Notes: generated from the sequence alone by a model not told the origin. A stretch of DNA of 64,000 nucleotides from Tulanevirus 60ahydrpp (IMGVR_UViG_2974724359_000001:83795-147794), one strand, 5' to 3'. Positions 2,586 to 59,857 are shown, numbered from the stretch's first letter. Program-made: numbers and translations.

Positions 2586-3269
2586 ATGCGTTATATGACT
2601 GTTCAAGATATTCGTGACATCATGGTGTCAAAATACAAATCAAATGAATTTGTTACTGACAAATCCGGGGTTAAAACTGTCGAAATTGCCCCAGTTATGT
2701 TTAAGGCCGATGAAGATCTAATTTTCGGTAAACTTAATCACGATTATATTGAGCGAGAGTTGTCTTGGTATTTGAGTCAATCTCGTTATGTTGCTGATAT
2801 TCCAGGTAAAACCCCAGCAATTTGGGAAGCTGTTGCAGATTGTAACGGTATGATCAACTCCAATTATGGCTGGGCTATTTTCAGCGAAGAAAATGGAAAT
2901 CAGTTTGCAAATGTTGTCAAACATCTAATTGAAAATCCATACACTCGTCGTGCAAACATGATTTATACTCGACCGTCTATGCATACTGATTACAATGCAA
3001 ATTGTATGTCCGATTTCATGTGCACCAATAATGTCCAATACCAGATCCGGGATGGAAAACTGAATGCAGTCGTTCATATGAGGTCAAATGACGCTATTTT
3101 CGGTTATCGGAATGATTGGGCGTGGCAGGATTATGTTTTGTCTAGACTGGTTGATACTCTTCAATCCCATGAAATCATGGTAGAAAAGGGTGATATCTAC
3201 TGGTGTGCTGATTCACTCCATGTGTATGAAAGACATTTTGGCCTGATTGAACAATACATTGCTCAATAA
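2586..3269 (+). CDS. 42: dCMP hydroxymethylase (thymidylate synthase fold; a dCMP hydroxylase variant cannot be excluded)
   Basis: Close to T4 gp42 throughout: DKSGVKTVEI, RELSWY, INSNYGWAI, DFMCTN (catalytic Cys), MRSND, FGYRNDWAWQ (cytosine-specifying Asp), SLHVYERH; syntenic after 43. Confidence 0.93.
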   Translation: MRYMTVQDIRDIMVSKYKSNEFVTDKSGVKTVEIAPVMFKADEDLIFGKLNHDYIERELSWYLSQSRYVADIPGKTPAIWEAVADCNGMINSNYGWAIFSEENGNQFANVVKHLIENPYTRRANMIYTRPSMHTDYNANCMSDFMCTNNVQYQIRDGKLNAVVHMRSNDAIFGYRNDWAWQDYVLSRLVDTLQSHEIMVEKGDIYWCADSLHVYERHFGLIEQYIAQ

Positions 3270-8249: not shown

Positions 8250-8765
8250 ATGACACCCCAATTCAATGAATGCGCACAACTAACTGGTAATATGGATAAG
8301 GCAGTAAATGCGCTGTATGATTGCCTTATTGCCAACGAGAATCCTCTCAATCGAATGATTGATATGCAGCGTCAACTTCAAATTGAGCTCGCACAACGGC
8401 ACCCAAAATACAATCGCGACCCGCGAGAGCTTAAAACTTGTGGCGAAATTCTTGACTGGTGCCAAGCACAGGATGATTATATTGCAGATGAGATTCGCGA
8501 GCATTATACCGCTTTGGGTGGAATGAGTAATCCCAAACCGAATGCGATCTGGAAACCTTGGCGCGCCGAACATGATGAATATCGTAATCGACTATTTTCT
8601 GAATTGTCGCCTGAAGACCAACTCGAAGCAAAATTTGAGTTGATTGACCAAATGCATTTTGTTCTTAACAAGATCATTGCGATGGGCATGGATGGCGATG
8701 AAATCTTCAAACTCTATTATTTGAAAAATGCCGAAAACTTCGCAAGGCAGGAGAATGGATACTAA
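8250..8765 (+). CDS. 56: dCTPase/dUTPase gp56
   Basis: QFNECAQL, DMQRQLQI, SPEDQLEAKFELID, KLYYLKNAENFARQENGY match T4 gp56. Confidence 0.94.
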   Translation: MTPQFNECAQLTGNMDKAVNALYDCLIANENPLNRMIDMQRQLQIELAQRHPKYNRDPRELKTCGEILDWCQAQDDYIADEIREHYTALGGMSNPKPNAIWKPWRAEHDEYRNRLFSELSPEDQLEAKFELIDQMHFVLNKIIAMGMDGDEIFKLYYLKNAENFARQENGY

Positions 8766-22629: not shown

Positions 22630-22929
22630 ATGAGCTCACCATTTAGCATTGTATTTTACAAAGACGATGACATTGTTGGTTCGGGTTATGGAAATCATAG
22701 TTGGATTTCGCCGAATGACTTACAGAAAGCGAAGAACATAATTGCAGTTGTTGAAGGAACATCTTGGCAGTTAGGACCGCACGAGAAAGAATGGACCCAT
22801 TTCATCGCTGCTGGTCGAGCGTTTTATGCTCAAGATTACGAGAAAATGAAGCAAATCGTTTATCTTATAGAAAGCTTTGATTTATCCGATTTTTCATTGT
22901 CATATTCTGAAATTGTGAGGAAATTGTAA
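22630..22929 (+). CDS. Hypothetical protein
   Basis: ORF between rIIB and denB. Confidence 0.65.
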   Translation: MSSPFSIVFYKDDDIVGSGYGNHSWISPNDLQKAKNIIAVVEGTSWQLGPHEKEWTHFIAAGRAFYAQDYEKMKQIVYLIESFDLSDFSLSYSEIVRKL

Positions 22930-23579
22930 TGACCGTACCGATGAACGTATCCCACGACGAATTTATCGCCCTTCGTCATATCCAGCCGTTTGACGCGGAT
23001 ATTATTCGTCTTCAGATCTGCGACCAACTCAAAAAGCAGCCCGATACGAGGGATGAGCTTTTTGAAAAACGGAAAAGGCGATATGATGATACCATCCAAT
23101 ATGCTCTTGATGAAGCGGCTGGGAAGGATATTCCTCGGCAAGAGGTCATTGATAGAACGGTTCATTCACTGAATGCCGAAATGGGTGTCGCATATATCCT
23201 GGGTGGTGTCTGGGGAGTATTTGACTGGTTAGACAATGATAATATCACCTTTGATGTGCCAACACCTGGGTTCAATCTGGAAATAAAGACTTCTTTTGCT
23301 AAATGGCCAACAATGCATACCGCTGGTGCTAAACCGTACGGCAAATCAGAAGGGCTGTGCTTGTACTCTGGTTTGCGCGGAGATGCTGATGTTTACCTGG
23401 TATTGAACATCAATGAATACGCTGGCCGCGTCACATATAGACCGAATTACTTCTTCACGAAGCGAGCTATGGAAAATTATCCGTATGTGATCTGCGTTCC
23501 CAAACGCGGAGGCGGAGCATACGTCAATAGACAGCACAACAAATTTGTTTATTTTTATAACAAGTGGTGTACACTCTGA
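22929..23579 (+). CDS. denB: DenB-like endonuclease IV (cytosine-specific ssDNA nuclease)
   Basis: EVIDRTVHSLNAEMGVAYILGG, FDV..PGFNLEIKT, PYGKSEGLCL, ADVYLVLN resemble T4 DenB; syntenic after rIIB. Confidence 0.7.
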   Translation: MTVPMNVSHDEFIALRHIQPFDADIIRLQICDQLKKQPDTRDELFEKRKRRYDDTIQYALDEAAGKDIPRQEVIDRTVHSLNAEMGVAYILGGVWGVFDWLDNDNITFDVPTPGFNLEIKTSFAKWPTMHTAGAKPYGKSEGLCLYSGLRGDADVYLVLNINEYAGRVTYRPNYFFTKRAMENYPYVICVPKRGGGAYVNRQHNKFVYFYNKWCTL

Positions 23580-27991: not shown

Positions 27992-28570
27992 ATGATTTCA
28001 CAAGCGCTGAAAAACAAAATCAGTCAGTATTATAAGGAACGCGTACAGTGGATGCGCGAAAATCATATCGTTGACGTTACAACTCCAACTTATACTCTCA
28101 AGTTTACAAATCACAAGGGTTATGTTGGTCAATGTCATTACTCTAACCGTGAAATCAGAATTTCAGAAAAACAAAATCAATATGCAACATGGGAGTCCAT
28201 TAAAGACACAATCAACCATGAGCTTGCTCACTGGGCAACCATAGGTCATGGCCACGACGAAGTATGGCAGCAAATGGCCGTTCGTCTTGGAGCAACTCCT
28301 GCGAAAACTTGCACCCTTGGCCAACTGCAAAAACCGTATGTCATAATGTGCAAAGGCAAAGTTGTAGGATATTCTGAGGTATTGCGAGTTGGTTCAGACG
28401 CTGCCACACGATATATCAAAGGAAAAAAGAAACAAACTCTTGGATTTTTGGAGTATAAGGTAAATCCAGAATTCATCGATAACTCCAACTGGAGCGAGCC
28501 AAGCGTCGAAATGCCAGTACGAATCAAAAAGACAAACAGCATTATCGCCGATTTTCTCAGCGATCTTTGA
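27992..28570 (+). CDS. SprT-like zinc metalloprotease
   Basis: GQCHY..REIRIS, TINHELAHW (HExxH), HGHDEVWQQMAVRLG. Confidence 0.85.
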   Translation: MISQALKNKISQYYKERVQWMRENHIVDVTTPTYTLKFTNHKGYVGQCHYSNREIRISEKQNQYATWESIKDTINHELAHWATIGHGHDEVWQQMAVRLGATPAKTCTLGQLQKPYVIMCKGKVVGYSEVLRVGSDAATRYIKGKKKQTLGFLEYKVNPEFIDNSNWSEPSVEMPVRIKKTNSIIADFLSDL

Positions 28571-29359: not shown

Positions 29360-30016
29360 ATGACCATGACCAAAATCGAAGCTATCGCAAAAGTTCTGAA
29401 CAATTCCAGCATCTCTGAAAACGCTACTTCTGTCTTCATTCAAGTTGCAAAGAAAGCTTTCGTTACTGCTGTTGAAATTGCAGAAGCCACTGAAATGAAC
29501 AAAAACGCAGTTTACTCCAATATCGGCGTGATGATGAAAAAGGGTTTGATCGAAAAATCTGGCGACGGCTACGTAACCACTGAAAGTGGTGATGCCATTC
29601 TCATCGAAGCTGCCGAAATGTGGAAAGCTGCCCAACCTGAAGTTGAAGCACCTAAGGTAGAAAAGAAAAAAGGAACTCGCAAAGCTCGCGAAATCACTGT
29701 CGAAATGACTAAAAATATCGAGCTTATCGAGCGACTGCTGTCCAACCTCGGTATCGAGCACAAGCAAGCAGTCATCAATCGTCAAAACTACGAAATCACT
29801 CTGAACAAACGCCACGCTGATGGATACCGCAAATTCGAAATTCTCAACCGCGGCATCTTCCGTATCGTTGGTTACAAAGTATCTGAAGAAATCATCAACA
29901 ACTTCAAGACTTTGGGTTGTGAAATCAAGCAAGGTCCGGCAAACTGCTACATCGACATCACCGCGAATGAAAACAACATCGTTCGTCTGATGGAAGAAAT
30001 TCAAGCCGCTAACTAA
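29360..30016 (+). CDS. motA: MotA activator of middle transcription
   Basis: SNIGVMMKKGLIEKSGDG and KKGTRKAREIT match T4 MotA. Confidence 0.93.
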   Translation: MTMTKIEAIAKVLNNSSISENATSVFIQVAKKAFVTAVEIAEATEMNKNAVYSNIGVMMKKGLIEKSGDGYVTTESGDAILIEAAEMWKAAQPEVEAPKVEKKKGTRKAREITVEMTKNIELIERLLSNLGIEHKQAVINRQNYEITLNKRHADGYRKFEILNRGIFRIVGYKVSEEIINNFKTLGCEIKQGPANCYIDITANENNIVRLMEEIQAAN

Positions 30017-30046: not shown

Positions 30047-30080
30047 ATCAGCCATCGCATGTTATAATGTGATGGTTGAT
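30047..30080 (+). promoter_or_regulatory. Extended -10 promoter (TGtTATAAT) of the sugar operon inside a 14-bp inverted repeat (two G-T pairs)
   Basis: atcagccatcgcat/atgtgatggttgat; no clear -35. Confidence 0.6.
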
Positions 30081-30097
30081 TTCATTTGAGGAAAAAT

Positions 30098-31162
30098 ATG
30101 AAAATTTTAATTGTTGGTGCTGGTTTGACTGGAGCAACTATTGCGCGCTGTCTTGCCGAACAAGGGCATGACATCACAGTCATTGACAAACGGAAACACA
30201 TTGGCGGAAACTGCTATGACGAAGTTCGAAATGGCACGCTAGTTCATAAGTACGGACCACATCTTTTGCATCATAGCGACTTGGATGTGCACAATTTCCT
30301 TTCACGCTGGACTTCCTGGATTCCCTACGAGCACAAGGTAAAAGTTGAATATAGAGATACATTAATCTCTTTCCCAGTGAATCTGAAAACACTCCAAGAG
30401 CTCTATGGTATTGAAACGGAGCAAGAGGCCATCAAGTATTTTGAAAAGGTTCGAGATACGAAATCTCCCACCAACTGTGATGAACTTTTCGATCATTCCG
30501 TAGGAAAAGACCTTGCCGATATTTTCTTTAGACCATACACGAAGAAAATGTGGGGCACTGATCCTAAAAACATCGAATGTGCTGTTGGCGCAAGGATTCC
30601 CGTGCGCACCTCTGATGATGACCGATATTTTAGTGATAAGTACCAATATATGCCCGAAGGTGGTTACACTAAAATGTTTGAAAGAATGCTTGACCATGAA
30701 CGAATCGAGGTCAAAATTCGCACGCCATTTGAAAAGGAAATGGAAGCTCACTATGATTTCATTTTCAACTCGATGCCCATCGACGCGTACTATGACTTCA
30801 AATTTGGCAAATTGCCGTACCGTTCTTTGCGTATGGAAGTAAAAGAAGAGAAGCATGATCATGGAATTACTACCGTGAATAACTCTGCTTCTGAAGAAGG
30901 TCATACTCGTTACACTGTTTGGAAGAATATTCCAGGTCATGGTGATGGCGACATGGTGACTTACGAATATCCATGCGACTACGATGGCACAAACGAGCCG
31001 TATTATCCAGTGACTCATGGAAAAGAACTCTATGCTAAGTATGCTGAGCATGCAAAGAGTGATAAAATGATGTTTATCGGCCGTATGGGTGCATATCAGT
31101 ATATCGATATGTGGAAAGCAGTTCGTAATGGTCTTGATATCGTTTCAGATTTCAAAGCGTAA
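30098..31162 (+). CDS. glf: UDP-galactopyranose mutase (flavoenzyme)
   Basis: IVGAGLTG FAD motif, DKRKHIGGNCYD, HKYGPH, PYTKKMWG, DDRYFSDKYQYMP..GYT, LPYRSL, EPYYP, GRMGAYQYIDM. Confidence 0.95.
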   Translation: MKILIVGAGLTGATIARCLAEQGHDITVIDKRKHIGGNCYDEVRNGTLVHKYGPHLLHHSDLDVHNFLSRWTSWIPYEHKVKVEYRDTLISFPVNLKTLQELYGIETEQEAIKYFEKVRDTKSPTNCDELFDHSVGKDLADIFFRPYTKKMWGTDPKNIECAVGARIPVRTSDDDRYFSDKYQYMPEGGYTKMFERMLDHERIEVKIRTPFEKEMEAHYDFIFNSMPIDAYYDFKFGKLPYRSLRMEVKEEKHDHGITTVNNSASEEGHTRYTVWKNIPGHGDGDMVTYEYPCDYDGTNEPYYPVTHGKELYAKYAEHAKSDKMMFIGRMGAYQYIDMWKAVRNGLDIVSDFKA

Positions 31163-31167
31163 TTAAT

Positions 31168-31187
31168 GCCGACTTCGGTCGGCTTTT
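31168..31187 (+). terminator. Weak intra-operon terminator/hairpin between glf and the glycosyltransferase gene
   Basis: gccgac-TTCG-gtcggc followed by tttt. Confidence 0.6.
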
Positions 31188-31201
31188 CAAAAGGAAATAA
31201 A

Positions 31202-32278
31202 ATGAAAATTCTTGTAACTGGCACTAACAACTATCATGCTCGCCCCGATTGGCATCTGGAAAAACGTTCTCGCTATCGTCTTGTGACTGCAACTACCGGT
31301 CTTGTCGAAGCTCTCAAAGATATGGGCCACGATGTTGATCAACGCTTCGTTACTCCAGGTGAAGACCTGAGTGGCTATGACAAAGTCTTCACTGCTTATT
31401 TCGATGCTACTGGTGGCATGCAACCAGGCGGTTATGGCGTATATTGGCTTCTGGCAAATCGTCCTGACGCAATCGTTGTTATTGACGACTGGCAAACCCC
31501 CGAACGTCTGATGAAAGGCTTCAAAAAGTCTGCCACTCGTACCCGTGAACAATTCGAAGAAGTTCTGTTCCGTGAATTTATGCTCAATGATCAGCATAAA
31601 ACAGCTGTAGATGCTATTGCAGCCGATCCTTCTCTGAAAGAAGACATCGTCAAGGGTTATGCTAAGAATGTCTTCGATTCTCACCGAATTCTGTATTGTG
31701 CATTCGACAAATTCGAAGTTTCCAAGATTTTCGATTATCCGCATGAATCTTATTCGTTCTGCCCTGAATCCTATGTTCCTAGCCCAGATGATCGGCTGCG
31801 CGAAATGGGTCTTGCTCGTCAAGATATTTTCCGCGAGCGCAAATGGATTATTGCCGGCATCGGTGGTCTTCCTACAAAGAAAGCGTGCAAGTTCAAAGAC
31901 AACTTCACATGGGATGTAGAAGTATTTGGTCGTGCAACTATTGACGTTGATGCCAAACTTGCGAAAGAGCCTGAAGTAATTCAAGCCTACTCAGGCGCCC
32001 GCGCTGTTTTCTATCCAGACCAAAACAACTTCGGCTCCAACTGGTGGCGCAATCGACCACGCCAATGCGCTGATATGGGTGCTGTTCTCTTTATGATGTC
32101 TGATGAAGAAGCTTCATTGTTTGGCCCATCTTATATGGGGCTTTCGATCGAGAAGTTAGAAGCCATGACTGACGAAGAGCTCGATGATCTTGCTGCTCGT
32201 CAGAAGGCCGATTATTACAAGTCAAATCCTCTGGACAAAGAAAAAGTTAAATCTTGTCTTGATTTGATTATGGCGTGA
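31202..32278 (+). CDS. Putative GT-B fold glycosyltransferase (soluble)
   Basis: MKILVTG...LVEALKDMGHDVD N-terminal Rossmann pattern, DLSGYDKVF, VVIDDW, C-terminal WWRNRPRQCADMGAVLF; no transmembrane segment; follows glf. Confidence 0.65.
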   Translation: MKILVTGTNNYHARPDWHLEKRSRYRLVTATTGLVEALKDMGHDVDQRFVTPGEDLSGYDKVFTAYFDATGGMQPGGYGVYWLLANRPDAIVVIDDWQTPERLMKGFKKSATRTREQFEEVLFREFMLNDQHKTAVDAIAADPSLKEDIVKGYAKNVFDSHRILYCAFDKFEVSKIFDYPHESYSFCPESYVPSPDDRLREMGLARQDIFRERKWIIAGIGGLPTKKACKFKDNFTWDVEVFGRATIDVDAKLAKEPEVIQAYSGARAVFYPDQNNFGSNWWRNRPRQCADMGAVLFMMSDEEASLFGPSYMGLSIEKLEAMTDEELDDLAARQKADYYKSNPLDKEKVKSCLDLIMA

Positions 32279-32289
32279 TGAGTTTTAAC

Positions 32290-32311
32290 AAGGCGGCTTC
32301 GGCCGCCTTTT
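32290..32311 (+). terminator. Terminator-like hairpin
   Basis: aaggcggc-TTCG-gccgcctt followed by tt. Confidence 0.7.
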
Positions 32312-32320
32312 GAGGATTTT

Positions 32321-32857
32321 ATGAATTCACACTGGTCAACACATCCGGAGTTCCCTGGATATCGAATAAAAAATGATGGCACGATTGTTGGGCTTTATAA
32401 TAAAAACTTAAAGCATAGCGGCGCTAAAGGTGATTACCAAACAGTTGTTTTGTATAAAGAAGGGAAATCTAAGAAATTTAGAGTTCATCGACTAATTGCT
32501 GAAGTTTTTATACCAAATCCGCAGGGTTTGCCTGAGGTAAATCACAAAGATGGGGTAAAGGATAATAATCACGTAGATAATTTGGAATGGGTATCTTCAA
32601 GTGCAAATACTAAGCACAAATGGGATAACGGGTTAGGAAATCACAAGCAAAAAGGTGCGTCGTCTAAGTATTTTGGCGTGTGTTTTGTCACGAAGCATCA
32701 AAATTGGAAGGCACAAGTGTCATATAAAGGAAAAAAGATTTTTCTCGGGTGTTATCCGACCGAGCTTGAAGCTGCAGCTGTATATGATAACTATGTTAAA
32801 ATTAATAACTTACCGAGGCCGCTTAATAATGAAGCAAATTATTGTAAGGCTGTTTAG
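32321..32857 (+). mobile_element. HNH homing endonuclease with C-terminal AP2 DNA-binding domain
   Basis: HRLIAEVFIPNPQGLPEVNHKDGVKDNNHVDNLEW; SSKYFGVCF...WKAQV...FLGCY.TELEAA.VYD. Confidence 0.9.
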
Positions 32858-33875
32858 CCCGATTTCGCGCAACAAGAAATCACACAAAATGGCCTGGGCA
32901 CGAGTGTGGCAAGCTGCTATCGAACACCACACCGGGTTTCCATGCGAGTTGATGCATGAGGCTAAACCGTGGTCAGAATATGATCGGGTCTATGTCTATT
33001 TCAATCTTGAGCCGTATGACAGATTGAGTTTGTTTGGTGGTCCTCAGCCTCAATATGCCGAGTTTATTAAATGCGCTGAAGGATTCACCGGTGAAATTGT
33101 TGCATTAGACAAACCTTTGGCCCGTTTTGGCGAATTCTGCAAAGCACGCTGTTTCAACAAACATGGTGAACCCAACATGAAAGTTCCCGAGCTATGGAGA
33201 GGAATTGATTGGGATTCCATTCAAGCACAGTTTGATAAAGCTACTTGTTTGTCAATGGCTTCTTTGCCGCTTGAAGATGTTACACTCGGGGATTCTCACA
33301 GCATTTCGGTGTGGCAACCGGGCTATAAGGCTTATCGGTGTGACGCACAAACATTGCGTGGAGCTTTGAAAAGGGGATTGTCAAGTTTCCTTCCTGCTAA
33401 AGTTCGGAATTTGACAATTTATTTTGGAAACATCGACGTTCGGTATCATTTCGGTTTGCAAAATAACCCGGTTTCGGATGTACTAGAAAAGCTTGACGAG
33501 TATGAAAAACAATTAGTCGGGCTAAAGGAGTCTGGACAAGTTACTGGAGAAATCGAACTTGTGCACTTGCTTCCGATTGAAGATGAGTCAAGAAAAATCC
33601 CAACAAACAATATGCTTAACGGAAAATCGTTTAATGGCAGTTGGGCTGAAAGAAATTCGTGGATGAACATTTTCAATAATGGATTATCGGAAATAGCATT
33701 CAAGCACGGTTTCAAGGTTCATACTTGGCCAAACAGCTGGTATGTCGAAACGTATAAAGACCCAAAATCATTCTTTACTCGCTTGGAAGCTATGAAAGGT
33801 TTGCATCTTGCTTTACCGTTCTATCGATATGAAGGATTTAAGGATAACAAAACTCTGGAGTTGTTTGATATCTGA
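32829..33875 (+). CDS. Two-domain protein: BGT-like N-terminal segment plus SGNH/GDSL-like C-terminal domain
   Basis: WSEYDRVYVY..LSLFGG resembles T4 beta-glucosyltransferase YDRLIVV..INFFGG; LGDSHS (block I), YFGNIDVR (block III), KGLHL (block V-like). Confidence 0.5.
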   Translation: MKQIIVRLFSPISRNKKSHKMAWARVWQAAIEHHTGFPCELMHEAKPWSEYDRVYVYFNLEPYDRLSLFGGPQPQYAEFIKCAEGFTGEIVALDKPLARFGEFCKARCFNKHGEPNMKVPELWRGIDWDSIQAQFDKATCLSMASLPLEDVTLGDSHSISVWQPGYKAYRCDAQTLRGALKRGLSSFLPAKVRNLTIYFGNIDVRYHFGLQNNPVSDVLEKLDEYEKQLVGLKESGQVTGEIELVHLLPIEDESRKIPTNNMLNGKSFNGSWAERNSWMNIFNNGLSEIAFKHGFKVHTWPNSWYVETYKDPKSFFTRLEAMKGLHLALPFYRYEGFKDNKTLELFDI

Positions 33876-33914
33876 AAAGGCCTTCGGGCCTTTTTTCGTT
33901 TTTGTTGTGTACAT
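33875..33914 (+). repeat. 40-bp terminator plus early-promoter cassette, identical to 63748-63787
   Basis: aaaaggccttcgggccttttttcgtttttgttgtgtacat at both sites; -10 TATTAT at 33931-33936. Confidence 0.9.
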
Positions 33915-53714: not shown

Positions 53715-54266
53715 GTGATTAAAGCCGTATTTGCTTTAGGTGTACCGTTGGATTTTCATGAGCATGGAGTTTTTGTATTTGGTAAAGATGGCGATTTACC
53801 ATGGCCATCGATCCCCGAAGACTTTAAACTTTTCAGGGAAAAAACCGATGGGACTATCTGTGTTATGGGTGCAAAAACATTCCAGTCGCTCCCAAAGAAT
53901 CTTCCAGGAAGGGTAATGGTTGTTATTGGCGATCCTAAGCGTGAGTGCCGGAACAAATCAGGTGAACTTCCTGACAATTTCATCAATATTGATATTGACT
54001 GGATTTCTGTGGTAAAAGAACTATATCCAGAAAATGATATATCGATTATCGGTGGCCTTGGCCTGATACTGTCAGTCGCCAACAAGTGTGATGAACTCCA
54101 TATCAATTTTCTTATGCTTACTTCTGATTATGATACAATTGACCCAACAGTTTATATCACTGATACCGCACTAGGAGTTTTCCTGGGTAAACGGAAAATG
54201 AATACTATCGCGTATCGAGTTGATCGTGAACATTGCACCAACATTAAAGCAGGAATTTGGAAATGA
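53715..54266 (+). CDS. frd: Dihydrofolate reductase
   Basis: DGDLPWP..PEDFKLF, VMGAKTFQSLP..LPGR, IIGG. Confidence 0.9.
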   Translation: MIKAVFALGVPLDFHEHGVFVFGKDGDLPWPSIPEDFKLFREKTDGTICVMGAKTFQSLPKNLPGRVMVVIGDPKRECRNKSGELPDNFINIDIDWISVVKELYPENDISIIGGLGLILSVANKCDELHINFLMLTSDYDTIDPTVYITDTALGVFLGKRKMNTIAYRVDREHCTNIKAGIWK

Positions 54267-55102
54267 TTCAATACACCGATTTAGTATGCGATATTATCAC
54301 CAATGGGCGAAAGAAGACTGATCGCACTGGAGTAGGCACCCGTTCGGTATTCGGTCGAATGCTTCGCTTTGACCTCAGCAAAGGCTTCCCGGCCACCACA
54401 TGCAAACGTCTAGCATTTGTTCCAGTTGTGGGTGAATTGCTGTGGTTTATGCAAGGTTCAACCAATGTCGAACATCTGCGCAAATTGACCTATGGCGAAA
54501 ACTCTGATCGTAAAACCATCTGGGATGATAACTATAACAAGCAAGCCGTTGATCTTGGATATTCTGATGGATACCTTGGTCCCGTTTATGGCAAGCAATG
54601 GCGTATGTTCGGTAATAAAAACCCGGTCGATCAACTGCAAAATGTGATCGATCAAATCAAAGCAAACCCCGACAGTCGTCGTCTTTTGGTTGTTGCATGG
54701 AATCCTGAAGATATCGAAAAAATGGCTTTGCCTCCATGTCACTATGCGTTCCAGTTTGAAGTATATGAAGGCAAACTCAGTTTGATGTGGAGCCAACGTT
54801 CCGTTGATGTTGGTCTTGGTCTGCCATTCAATATTGCGTCCTATGCGCTTCTTGTCCATATTGTAGCTCGAATTTGCAATTTGGAAGTTGGTGAATTGGT
54901 ATTCTCTGGTGCAGATGTCCACATTTACGAAAATCACCTGAGTCATCTCGGCGGTATGCTTTCTCGTGAAGAACGCCCTTTGCCTACGTTGAGTTTCCCG
55001 GATATTGACAGTTTGAGTGATCTGCGTTTACTGGAAGCAGCCGATTTCCGCCTGGACGGGTATGACCCACACCCAACAATTAAACTACCGATGGCTGTGT
55101 AA
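54263..55102 (+). CDS. td: Thymidylate synthase (intronless)
   Basis: DRTGVGT, GELLWF, LGPVYGKQWR, DSRR, MALPPCH, QRSVDVGLGLPFNIASY, HIYENH. Confidence 0.96.
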   Translation: MIQYTDLVCDIITNGRKKTDRTGVGTRSVFGRMLRFDLSKGFPATTCKRLAFVPVVGELLWFMQGSTNVEHLRKLTYGENSDRKTIWDDNYNKQAVDLGYSDGYLGPVYGKQWRMFGNKNPVDQLQNVIDQIKANPDSRRLLVVAWNPEDIEKMALPPCHYAFQFEVYEGKLSLMWSQRSVDVGLGLPFNIASYALLVHIVARICNLEVGELVFSGADVHIYENHLSHLGGMLSREERPLPTLSFPDIDSLSDLRLLEAADFRLDGYDPHPTIKLPMAV

Positions 55103-55405
55103 ATGACTATATGCACCGTTGTAAACGTCAAGCATGAAAGATGTGACGTTCGTATACAGCGAGGCACCATATGGGGTAATCCATACGGAGAACCCCATTG
55201 GAAACGGCAGGATTATCTTGACAATTACAAAAAGCATTTAAAACACCAAATAAAAACTGGGGCTATTACTCTTGCCGATTTAGAATCACTACGAGGCAAG
55301 AAATTGGGGTGTGGTTGCAAACCATTGCCATGTCACGGAGATATTCTTGCTGATCTAGTTAATCGCATGTTTAAGGATGTGCCAAGCGTAGATGATTTCA
55401 TATGA
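55103..55405 (+). CDS. DUF4326-like protein
   Basis: VVNVK...DV.I.RGT.WGNPY...LRGK.LGC.CKP.PCHGD.LA. Confidence 0.8.
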   Translation: MTICTVVNVKHERCDVRIQRGTIWGNPYGEPHWKRQDYLDNYKKHLKHQIKTGAITLADLESLRGKKLGCGCKPLPCHGDILADLVNRMFKDVPSVDDFI

Positions 55406-55818
55406 CATTAAAAGAACACGGATTCATTCAGATAGCAGAATTGACCATAGGTAAAAACGGACGTATATCCAGAGATTTTGCTAAAGACCCATCACTAAAA
55501 CACATCATTTATTTGTTTACGATTGATGATGAAGTTGTGTATATTGGTCAAACAAAGAATTTGCACAAACGAATGGACTCATATGCTAATGGCAAGTATT
55601 GGAAAAATACGAACAAGTCGCATATCGAAAAATCCAAGTTTCTGGAAGAAGCAGTAAACTCAGGTAAGAGAGTTTGTGTTTGGATAAAGCATTGCTTCAA
55701 AATTGTTATAACTACTCCTGCTGGGTCAAACGTTATAGCTGATCTCGACGCAGAAGAGAAAAAATTTATCGGGATTTTTAATCCTGTTCTAAATTCAAAA
55801 CTGAAGGTTAAATTATGA
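55402..55818 (+). CDS. denA: Endonuclease II (GIY-YIG)
   Basis: IIYLFTIDDEVVYIGQTKNL.KR, DLDAEE..FI..FNP; syntenic before rnlA. Confidence 0.88.
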   Translation: MTLKEHGFIQIAELTIGKNGRISRDFAKDPSLKHIIYLFTIDDEVVYIGQTKNLHKRMDSYANGKYWKNTNKSHIEKSKFLEEAVNSGKRVCVWIKHCFKIVITTPAGSNVIADLDAEEKKFIGIFNPVLNSKLKVKL

Positions 55819-57042: not shown

Positions 57043-57591
57043 ATGAATCATTACAATTACACCGTCGAAATTCTCATCAACACGTACGCTCTCGGCGGCA
57101 GTTCGGATGGAATTCGAATTTTCGACAAAAACGGTAAAGTTGTAGGATATATTACTGATTTGCGCAAAGCTGCTCATTCTGCAGCCGAAAAGAAAGAAAA
57201 ATCCAAATCGTACTCTCGGGAATACTATCAACAAGCTAAAACTAACATTGGCCCAATGGTCAATGAAGTTGTGAACGAGTTGAAAAATGTTTTTGCAGGC
57301 ACACCCGCAAAGGTGTTTATTAACGAAACGATGCCGAATGTCAATTTTATGGGAGCCAAGTTCTATTTTATCTTGTCTCCACTGACTGACAAAATTCGTG
57401 TAAACATCACTCATAAAGATGCATGCCGCATGAAGTATGTTTTCCCACAACATGCCAAACTTGATATTCGTCAAGGCGGAAAAAGCATTTTGATTGATGG
57501 TTTGACACGGAGCGAAGGCATCGCTCTTGTCAAAGGATTCTGCGAAAATGTTGTTAACTTTGAGTTCGCTGCTCAGTTGGCTAAAAAGTAA
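57043..57591 (+). CDS. alc: Alc, inhibitor of transcription on cytosine-containing DNA
   Basis: DGIRIF....VGYITDLRK, VFINETMPNV, ILSPLT, ILIDGL match T4 Alc. Confidence 0.85.
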   Translation: MNHYNYTVEILINTYALGGSSDGIRIFDKNGKVVGYITDLRKAAHSAAEKKEKSKSYSREYYQQAKTNIGPMVNEVVNELKNVFAGTPAKVFINETMPNVNFMGAKFYFILSPLTDKIRVNITHKDACRMKYVFPQHAKLDIRQGGKSILIDGLTRSEGIALVKGFCENVVNFEFAAQLAKK

Positions 57592-59099: not shown

Positions 59100-59342
59100 A
59101 TGTTTTTTGACACCTACGAAGCTGCACTAGCAGAGTTGGAAAAGCGTTGCAGCGAATTCCAGAACAAAGTCAAAGCTCGCGACAAAAATGCGATGGTTTC
59201 AATAACTCAAATAAGCATCAACGAATTTGAGTTGATCGTCGCCAATGGTGCAGGTGGACGTGACAATTATTTGTTTGCAATTTCGTTGGCCCAACCTCCT
59301 GTGCCGAAGTTTATCATCAGTTGCTCTCGGGTAATCGCATGA
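59100..59342 (+). CDS. Hypothetical early protein
   Basis: ORF after promoter and RBS. Confidence 0.65.
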   Translation: MFFDTYEAALAELEKRCSEFQNKVKARDKNAMVSITQISINEFELIVANGAGGRDNYLFAISLAQPPVPKFIISCSRVIA

Positions 59343-59857
59343 AAGATACAAGTGTATTACAACATGCCTATATCGTTGCACAAGAATCTCATTGTGTTTC
59401 GTGGAAAGTAGGTGCTATCATTTCGAAAGATGGTCGAATTATTTCGACTGGTTATAACGGAACTCCAGCTGGGTGCAACCATGCTAATTGCGATGATCAT
59501 GCGATGAAAAGTGGTTGGCTTGATTCTCATGGTAAGTTGCGAGGAATGTATCGGCAAGCCCATAGTGAATGGTCAAAGGCAAATGAAATTCATGCAGAAT
59601 TGAACGCCATTCTGTATGCTGCGAAAACCGGGCAAAGTATTGATGGTGCTGAAATGCACGTTACTGTTTCTCCTTGTCCAGATTGCGCAAAAGCCATAGC
59701 TCAGTCGGGGATTAAGCGAGTCGTCTATAATGAGTTATATGATCGTAACCCGGACGGATGGGATGACATACTCATTAAGTCTGGAGTAGAAGTAGTGAAA
59801 AACGAACAGCCTCTCAACATTATCAAGAAAATTTACACCACAAGCAACCAAAATTGA
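59339..59857 (+). CDS. cd: dCMP deaminase
   Basis: SHCVSWKVGA, TGYNGTP, EIHAELNAI, VSPCPDCAKAI. Confidence 0.95.
   Translation: MKDTSVLQHAYIVAQESHCVSWKVGAIISKDGRIISTGYNGTPAGCNHANCDDHAMKSGWLDSHGKLRGMYRQAHSEWSKANEIHAELNAILYAAKTGQSIDGAEMHVTVSPCPDCAKAIAQSGIKRVVYNELYDRNPDGWDDILIKSGVEVVKNEQPLNIIKKIYTTSNQN

Follow-up and report, generated by a model that had tools for sequence, protein, structure and literature searches.

What do Aeromonas phages that carry gene 42 without a known glucosyltransferase put on their cytosines? For phages 25, 31 and 44RR this combination was left as an open puzzle (Petrov et al. 2010, PMC2993671). We examined a 64,000-nucleotide window of Tulanevirus 60ahydrpp (IMGVR_UViG_2974724359_000001:83795-147794), in which positions 30047-33875 hold a gene block that encodes a UDP-galactopyranose mutase (UGM; gene glf), a glycosyltransferase of the GT-B type (GT), an HNH endonuclease and a protein that joins a BGT-like N-terminal half to an SGNH-like domain (the chimera). 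Our analysis offers a testable answer to the 2010 puzzle for the phage 25 group: with a probability of roughly two in three, glf and the GT put galactofuranose on 5-hydroxymethylcytosine (5hmC) in the phage DNA. This proposal is built on what was observed, namely the genes present, their predicted folds and signature residues, purifying selection and linkage across phages; from these we infer all chemical steps, the identity of the sugar and the acceptor. If it is true, these phages would contain a natural DNA base not known before, galactofuranosyl-5hmC, and the GT would be the founding member of a DNA furanosyltransferase family that extends over at least five phage lineages. The DNA chemistry of these phages, which are used against Aeromonas in aquaculture, governs their sensitivity to restriction, type IV systems and CRISPR, and affects their sequencing and engineering.

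Acceptor base, sugar donor and glycosyltransferase

The 3.8-kb stretch of the block is 94-96% identical to the Aeromonas phages Aes508, 25, phiAS4, Aes012, AS-gz and their relatives, which places it in Tulanevirus, Straboviridae (phage 25/phiAS4/Aes508 group), and the window belongs to a genome of 165,795 bp that is complete and has terminal repeats. This genome encodes two ThyA homologues, td (54257-55102) and a gene 42 homologue (2586-3269, plus strand; Pfam Thymidylat_synt, 61 bits), predicted to be a dCMP hydroxymethylase that yields 5hm-dCMP. In an alignment with td, T4 gp42 and RB69 gp48, the product of the latter gene shows the T4-like RSND...RND, where RB69 gp48 has RSQN, and it combines the catalytic Cys with Asp at ThyA position 169 and Asp at ThyA position 177, the T4-type signature. 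Asn at ThyA position 169 is the mark of 5-hydroxy-dCMP (5hodCMP) synthases (Lee et al., NAR 2026, PMC13326640). Because gp42 keeps Asp at this position, where the proven 5hodCMP synthases have Asn, the phage base is predicted from its sequence to be 5hmC and not the 5-hydroxycytosine (5hoC) of RB69. An earlier interpretation of the window from its sequence alone (hereafter the sequence-only reading) had recognized the cytosine-specifying Asp and had named either base as the acceptor; the first of the two stands, and the second is left without the RB69-type Asn.

The companion genes of cytosine replacement that this reading had listed are likewise present, all on the plus strand: a gene 56 homologue for a dCTPase/nucleoside triphosphate pyrophosphohydrolase (8250-8765; phrog_173, 1.6e-35; annotated as dCTPase in phiAS4), a denB-like endonuclease IV gene (22929-23579; phrog_1360, 1.2e-55), alc (57043-57591; phrog_1253, 2.8e-58) and the dCMP deaminase gene cd (59321-59857; phrog_174, 3.7e-67). 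For denA, the presence of a 138-aa GIY-YIG nuclease (55402-55818; Pfam GIY-YIG, 2e-6) is confirmed, and this protein is likely DenA, judged by size, domain and expected position alone.

No glycosyltransferase was found beside gene 42, as the sequence-only reading had also noted. Pfam profiles for AGT, BGT, GT1, GT2 and GT4-like enzymes gave no match anywhere in the complete 165.8-kb genome, under conditions that recovered T4's own genes at 1e-262 (AGT) and 1e-99 (BGT); for PF09198 (GT63), to which T4 scores 1e-99, no genome match was obtained at E <= 1. The agt or bgt genes elsewhere in the genome that could have accounted for all modification are thus not found. Phmmer queries with RB69 gp3, 45-47, 50-53 and 55 returned no arabinose-pathway homologue below E 0.01 in the genome. 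The idea of a second GT or sugar-activation gene outside the block was dropped, the profile and RB69 queries all being empty.

The sugar donor would come from glf (30098-31162, plus strand; 354 aa). Its product matches the GLF domain (PF03275; 6e-54, 183 bits against a cut-off of 26.3) and NAD_binding_8 (69 bits), has a GAGLTG motif as its N-terminal FAD-binding Rossmann motif and aligns over its full length to the solved UGMs 3hdq (the Deinococcus enzyme, 5e-77) and 2bi7 (1e-68). The motifs GxGxxG, YGPH, Y..W, PVR, PYYP and GR..Y.Y.D are all aligned, as is a TR motif whose arginine stands opposite the R of the YTR of 2bi7, so that the complete set of UGM motifs claimed before is borne out; we take these residues to serve the substrate and flavin sites. 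The start at ATG 30098 agrees with the annotated relatives, a listed TTG at 30086 lying four codons upstream. With a ratio of non-synonymous to synonymous substitution rates (dN/dS) of 0.007-0.012, the gene looks, from its sequence, like a full and fully functional UGM, with a predicted conversion of UDP-galactopyranose to UDP-galactofuranose.

The adjoining GT gene (31202-32278, plus strand; 358 aa; phrog_14998) has no match in Pfam. An AlphaFold model of its product, built on an alignment of 14 homologues, shows a GT-B fold at a mean confidence score (pLDDT) of 90, and Foldseek searches with this model retrieved GT-B glycosyltransferases exclusively, the nearest solved fold being T4 BGT, a GT-B enzyme of two Rossmann domains. 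Profile alignment in hhalign gave the GT family a probability of 11% against BGT, limited to the N-terminus, and 0.7% against RB69 gp3. Strand 91-94 of the N-terminal domain is succeeded by Asp96-Trp97, a pair that is nearly invariant, and the C-terminal domain contains an invariant R283-N-R285; Asp96 may be the counterpart of BGT Asp100, the catalytic residue after strand 4. No hydrophobic segment reaches transmembrane level, and dN/dS is about 0.05. The soluble GT-B-like protein of the sequence-only reading is therefore confirmed, and the fold search it had proposed points to BGT. On the strength of the model and the gene context, we predict that the GT represents a new family and acts as a DNA 5hmC furanosyltransferase.

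Taken together, these genes could form the following route. By analogy to T4, gp42, gp56 and dNMP kinase would swap dCTP for 5hm-dCTP, which would introduce 5hmC into the replicated DNA. Glf would turn host UDP-galactopyranose into UDP-galactofuranose, and the BGT-shaped GT would flip out 5hmC and move the furanose onto its hydroxymethyl oxygen. The resulting galactofuranosyl-5hmC would shield the phage DNA from restriction enzymes and Cas nucleases, while DenA, DenB and Alc would target DNA with unmodified cytosine.

Linkage of the GT family and the choice between sugars and acceptors

The strongest evidence for a role in DNA modification is the linkage of the GT family. A GT homologue directly adjoins glf in five independent phage lineages: in Tulanevirus; in Erwinia phage FBB1, with a GT of 69% identity and the same motA-glf-GT order; in the Kyanoviridae phage C48C1, as a three-gene operon of a Tet_JBP dioxygenase, GT and glf (L017:6586-10033); in an actinophage-like contig (L010) that also has a C5 methylase gene and a MazG-type dUTPase_2/HNH gene; and in an IMG/VR locus (L030). 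FBB1 encodes a gp42-type enzyme besides glf and the GT and has neither AGT nor BGT, and therefore glf and the GT look like a self-sufficient module; the chimera is missing from its glf-GT locus. The C48C1 genome contains no ThyA homologue, so that 5hmC there would come from the oxidation of 5-methylcytosine (5mC).

Other GT homologues are located 2-9 kb from ThyA homologues (8-9 kb in several IMG/VR loci), and one stands beside PRA-PH, kinase, ThyA and dCMP deaminase genes. The ThyA homologues near GT relatives all carry Asp169/Asp177, except in Morganella, where the 5hoC signature is found, as expected. The co-occurrence with gene 42 that the sequence-only reading had suggested examining is thus seen for the GT, and it returns for the chimera below. 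In Morganella phage Rgz1, gp40 (L008:6992-8059) is a full-length GT homologue of 26% identity within an RB69-type arabinofuranose cluster that has no glf. It is placed between an arabinose 5-phosphate isomerase and a nucleoside diphosphate (NDP)-sugar enzyme, an arrangement also present in Providencia PSTRCR_121/127, and may be a second arabinosyltransferase there, replacing the RB69 gp3-type enzyme.

Gordonia phage Sixama (L018:7962-14376) and the L010 contig (L010:8296-13905) each encode one or two GT-family paralogues and another GT, in company with a MazG-like pyrophosphatase or related dUTPase_2/HNH gene and a 430-aa C5 DNA methylase-like gene beside WhiB; glf is present in the latter and not in Sixama.

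The core of the sequence-only reading, a phage-made furanose donor with a DNA glycosyltransferase acting on hydroxylated cytosine, is supported by the BGT-like fold, the lack of another GT and this family linkage. Which sugar is transferred can be judged from the same neighbourhoods. It could be arabinofuranose, if Glf acted on UDP-arabinopyranose, or a pyranose from UDP-glucose or UDP-galactose, if Glf served otherwise. The Morganella and Providencia relatives, which reside in an RB69-type UDP-arabinofuranose cluster without glf, show that the family is not restricted to galactofuranose, and bacterial UGMs are reported to interconvert the ring forms of UDP-arabinose in vitro. Yet glf directly adjoins the GT gene in all five unrelated lineages, which speaks for Glf as the source of the donor; the genome search revealed no gene for arabinose activation; and Aeromonas is not known to make UDP-arabinopyranose, whereas UDP-galactose is common. 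We therefore regard a sugar other than galactofuranose as unlikely.

If the target were not DNA, glf and the GT would serve either to alter a glycan on the host surface (O-antigen, capsule or S-layer glycan) or to attach sugar to a protein of the phage or the host, with superinfection exclusion or virion decoration as possible purposes. UGM is classically an enzyme of the cell envelope, a phage UGM has been interpreted in one paper as a gene that benefits the host (PMC6630229), and the GT family has a Vibrio prophage member without a visible hmC gene. This explanation is nevertheless very improbable in view of the block itself, which stands among early and middle genes for DNA metabolism, belongs to a strictly lytic phage and encodes soluble proteins, in a genome without a lipid-carrier, flippase or polymerase gene and without another recognizable GT. 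The top fold match of the GT is moreover a DNA enzyme, BGT, and its family recurs beside gp42-type ThyA homologues, a TET dioxygenase, C5 methylases and MazG/dCTPase genes. The sequence-only reading had already taken the absence of transmembrane and lipid-carrier genes as an argument against O-antigen modification, and this argument holds: O-antigen modification was rejected as the principal explanation in light of the soluble proteins, the missing envelope genes, the BGT-like fold and the DNA-modification neighbours.

Several observations weigh against galactofuranosyl-5hmC as we propose it. The match of the GT to BGT exceeds that to the unrelated SenB by just about 1 Z unit, and sequence searches with the GT gave no match to BGT, to Pfam families or to solved chains, so that its assignment rests on the predicted fold and the context. 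Gene 42 is 27 kb away from the block, which makes the linkage in this phage genomic and not operonic, and the Vibrio vulnificus prophage encodes a GT homologue without a visible hmC partner. The sugar is not fixed, as UGMs can accept other UDP-sugars and the relatives of the GT in phages that arabinosylate their DNA must work with a pentofuranose. We found no literature on the DNA composition of Tulanevirus or on galactofuranosyl-5hmC, and no publication on the glf-GT module or on the chimera. One group digested the DNA of a related phage with DraI, SspI and MseI, all of which cut A/T-only sites, and this choice of enzymes is only a hint at modified cytosine. The Vibrio contig (L012:10001-11104), whose GT is 40% identical, is prophage-like, with terminase, portal, dihydrofolate reductase and SegE-like nuclease genes, and has no glf or ThyA gene within 10 kb.

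Compared with known systems, the proposed pathway most obviously recalls the glucosyl-5hmC of T4, with which it shares the gp42 active-site signature, the genes 56, cd, denA/denB and alc, and a soluble glycosyltransferase of the GT-B type, for which BGT itself is the closest solved fold; the mechanism is expected to be shared as well, with a UDP-sugar donating its sugar to the hydroxymethyl group after replication. By sequence, however, the GT is outside the BGT (CAZy GT63, PF09198) and AGT families; its gene is found near motA and not beside gene 42; the donor would be phage-made by a ring-contracting mutase, whereas T4 uses host UDP-glucose; and an SGNH chimera on half a BGT-like fold is added. 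The arabinofuranosyl-5hoC of RB69, DLP3 and HY126 is similar in that a furanose is placed on a C5-oxygenated cytosine in Straboviridae, and Morganella phage Rgz1 has a full-length GT homologue (26% identity) in a cluster of this type. That pathway's arabinose 5-phosphate isomerase, kinase/uridylyltransferase, phosphatase and 5hodCMP synthase were not found in our genome, and the donor would instead arise from a host UDP-sugar in a single step.

The donor route was described in the sequence-only reading as unlike those of T4 and RB69, which is correct for these two phages; it is not without precedent, since a UGM proposal exists for Rhizobium phage RL38J1 (Pootjesviridae). There, a phage UGM is proposed to supply the UDP-galactofuranose for galactosyl-glucosyl-5-hydroxycytosine (Lee et al., NAR 2026, PMC13326640). 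Both phages would thus feed a DNA glycosyltransferase on modified cytosine from a phage UGM, whose role in RL38J1 is itself a proposal. They differ in the base, which is 5hoC made via an Asn169 ThyA homologue in RL38J1 and, with Asp, predicted to be 5hmC in Tulanevirus, as well as in phage family and gene arrangement. A donor-tailoring partner is also known from methyltransferase-TET-GT phage clusters, which contain an NDP-sugar epimerase and for which no mutase or furanose is mentioned (PNAS 2021, PMC8256090; bioRxiv 10.1101/2023.12.21.572611). These clusters likewise pair a DNA glycosyltransferase with a phage enzyme that tailors its donor, and the C48C1 operon is a Tet_JBP-GT-glf version with a GT homologue; in Tulanevirus, by contrast, 5hmC would come from the nucleotide pool via gp42 and not from 5mC oxidation, and the partner is a mutase and not an epimerase.

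The BGT-like/SGNH chimera, probably a separate module

The last protein of the block (32829-33875, plus strand; 348 aa; phrog_13881) is predicted to be an acyl transferase or esterase directed at 5hmC DNA. The BGT-like start and SGNH-like motifs that had been noticed in the sequence are both real: residues ~1-100 align to the N-terminus of BGT, including NFFGG (probability 90.7%), residues 142-336 form a flavodoxin-like SGNH fold, and among 38 sequences Ser156 of GDSHS and His326 are invariant, with Asn201 of GNID in at least 90%. Fold comparison places sialate O-acetylesterases, carbohydrate esterases and two peptidoglycan O-acetyltransferases, PatB and OatA, among its closest matches; at the sequence level, its family profile matched no solved PDB chain. 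A dN/dS of 0.027 indicates strong constraint, and the family counts 430 relatives in IMG/VR.

We counted the neighbours of the chimera in 79 fetched IMG/VR loci. A ThyA homologue was nearby in 41 of them, with the gp42 signature in all 36 scorable cases, and 21-23 loci share the order chimera, protein X, pyridoxal phosphate (PLP) enzyme, ThyA. In this operon, seen in L013:10001-14511, L014:10001-13175 and 21-23 further loci (L052-L108), protein X (~310 aa) is HMUDK_hel/ADDT-like, the PLP enzyme is a PALP protein and the ThyA homologue is gp42-type; the operons examined showed no P-loop kinase domain. It probably encodes a non-sugar cytosine hypermodification that is as yet undescribed. Phages M6, ViI, SP10 and PhiW-14 reportedly hypermodify thymidine by means of 5-HMUDK, aGPT-Pplase and amino-acid:DNA transferases. 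The chimera relatives resemble these pathways in standing beside, or being fused to, HMUDK_hel/ADDT-like proteins, and in having a PLP enzyme next to a ThyA homologue; they differ in that their ThyA homologues are cytosine-type and a P-loop kinase domain was not seen, and the ADDT-like and PLP partners were not found in the genome studied here.

In 44RR, the chimera (50% identity over 334 aa) is fused to an HMUDK_hel/ADDT-like C-terminal domain of 460 residues in a 795-aa protein, and this fusion to a kinase/transferase-like domain could be a second answer to the 2010 puzzle, for 44RR and 31. Both protein X and the C-terminal domain resemble HMUDK_hel/ADDT proteins via language-model and structure look-alikes, and a direct comparison of the two by phmmer showed no similarity; their kinship through common labels is a lead, not proof. 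In 44RR2.8t (L006:4408-8388) and phage 31, motA is followed by a sodium:solute symporter gene (Pfam SSF, 6e-53) and then by the gene for the 795-aa fusion, an unexpected pairing of a transporter with a DNA-modification enzyme in a lytic phage.

These distributions contradict the claim that the chimera belongs to the sugar system. It is next to the GT in all Tulanevirus genomes, the only ones to combine it with glf and the GT; 44RR and 31 have it without glf and GT, and FBB1 has glf and GT without it. Only one of the 79 loci has a chimera beside glf or the GT family, and that locus is phage 25 itself. Neighbours of chimera homologues were tested for membership in the GT family and are not members. 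Because the family is tied to gp42-type enzymes and HMUDK/ADDT-like proteins, apart from glf and the GT, we interpret the chimera as a second, separable hmC-directed module. Its most plausible chemistry, on weak inference, is that it adds an acyl group to the hydroxymethyl group or the sugar, or takes one off. The BGT-like half might bind the same base as the GT, and the Ser-His domain might then add or remove the acyl group, which is the least certain step of the whole scheme.

It is doubtful that the chimera acts on the sugar, O-acetylating or de-O-acetylating galactofuranosyl-5hmC as a tailoring step of the glf-GT module and leaving the bare hydroxymethyl group alone. Such a role would fit its position next to the GT in every Tulanevirus genome and its fold matches among sialate O-acetylesterases, carbohydrate esterases, PatB and OatA. 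Outside Tulanevirus, however, neither glf nor a GT-family gene ever adjoins it, its companions are gp42-type enzymes and HMUDK/ADDT-like proteins at loci without visible sugar genes, and Erwinia FBB1 manages glf and GT without it. A wider and still tentative interpretation would make the chimera the first DNA-base enzyme with an esterase fold, one that O-acylates the hydroxymethyl of flipped-out 5hmC. In most phages it might replace the DNA kinase in converting the hydroxyl to a leaving group for the amino-acid:DNA transferases, and in Tulanevirus, where those transferases are lacking, it might leave stable acyl-5hmC or acylated galactofuranosyl-5hmC, so that virion DNA could bear two cytosine decorations, galactofuranosyl and acyl, both undescribed. 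What speaks against an acyl-transferring module in this phage is that the acid of the SGNH DxxH block is missing, the nearest invariant acid being Glu320, 6 residues before His326; that the chimera matches no Pfam SGNH family (nor any Pfam family at E <= 0.1); and that profiles found no ADDT/HMUDK-like partner, PLP enzyme or 44RR C-terminal domain in this genome. For both modules, cultured phages provide a natural test set, with glf and GT in FBB1, the chimera in 44RR and both in phage 25.

Layout of the block and neighbouring features

The block reads motA, glf, GT, HNH gene, chimera gene, all on the plus strand. MotA (29360-30016; Pfam MotA_activ, 3e-16; MotCF, 2e-12) marks the conserved left border of a variable locus, as it does in 44RR and Erwinia FBB1. 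Glf, the GT and the chimera are all soluble, and purifying selection is strong across the three (dN/dS 0.007-0.057).

The HNH gene (32321-32857, plus strand; Pfam HNH_3, 5e-8) encodes a free-standing homing endonuclease with HNH_3 and AP2-like domains and is a true mobile insertion, as had been supposed. Most relatives lack it, among them phage 25, phiAS4 and 13 further records, which align in two pieces at 87% coverage, and the inserted 508 bp (32321-32828) are placed precisely between the ribosome-binding site of the chimera gene and its ATG.

The sequence-only reading had placed a single promoter before glf. An extended -10 element, TGtTATAAT (30060-30068, plus strand), can be read directly in the loop of a hairpin (30047-30080) and, together with the common direction of the genes, agrees with this claim. 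The -35 region is poor, no MotA box was seen upstream of glf, and a generic promoter scan returned promoter-like sites no more numerous than in shuffled sequences, a part of the claim that was not upheld. The interpretation as a single operon was not adopted, given that the scan lacked enrichment over shuffles; the co-directional block is a candidate single transcription unit only.

GC-rich hairpins with UUCG loops follow glf (31168-31183, between glf and the GT), the GT gene (32292-32307, before the HNH gene) and the end of the block (33874-33895), all on the plus strand. T runs are short at the first two, which could be partial terminators or mRNA stabilizers; the third, with a 9-bp stem and then a T run, is a strong and full intrinsic terminator. 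Elsewhere in the window, a GIY-YIG endonuclease gene separates the parts of a split DNA polymerase gene that precedes gene 42 (572-2576), as in the phiAS4 annotation, and a 192-aa protein with an SprT-like zinc-metalloprotease domain (27992-28570; Pfam SprT-like, 1.7e-10) is encoded among the early genes upstream of motA.

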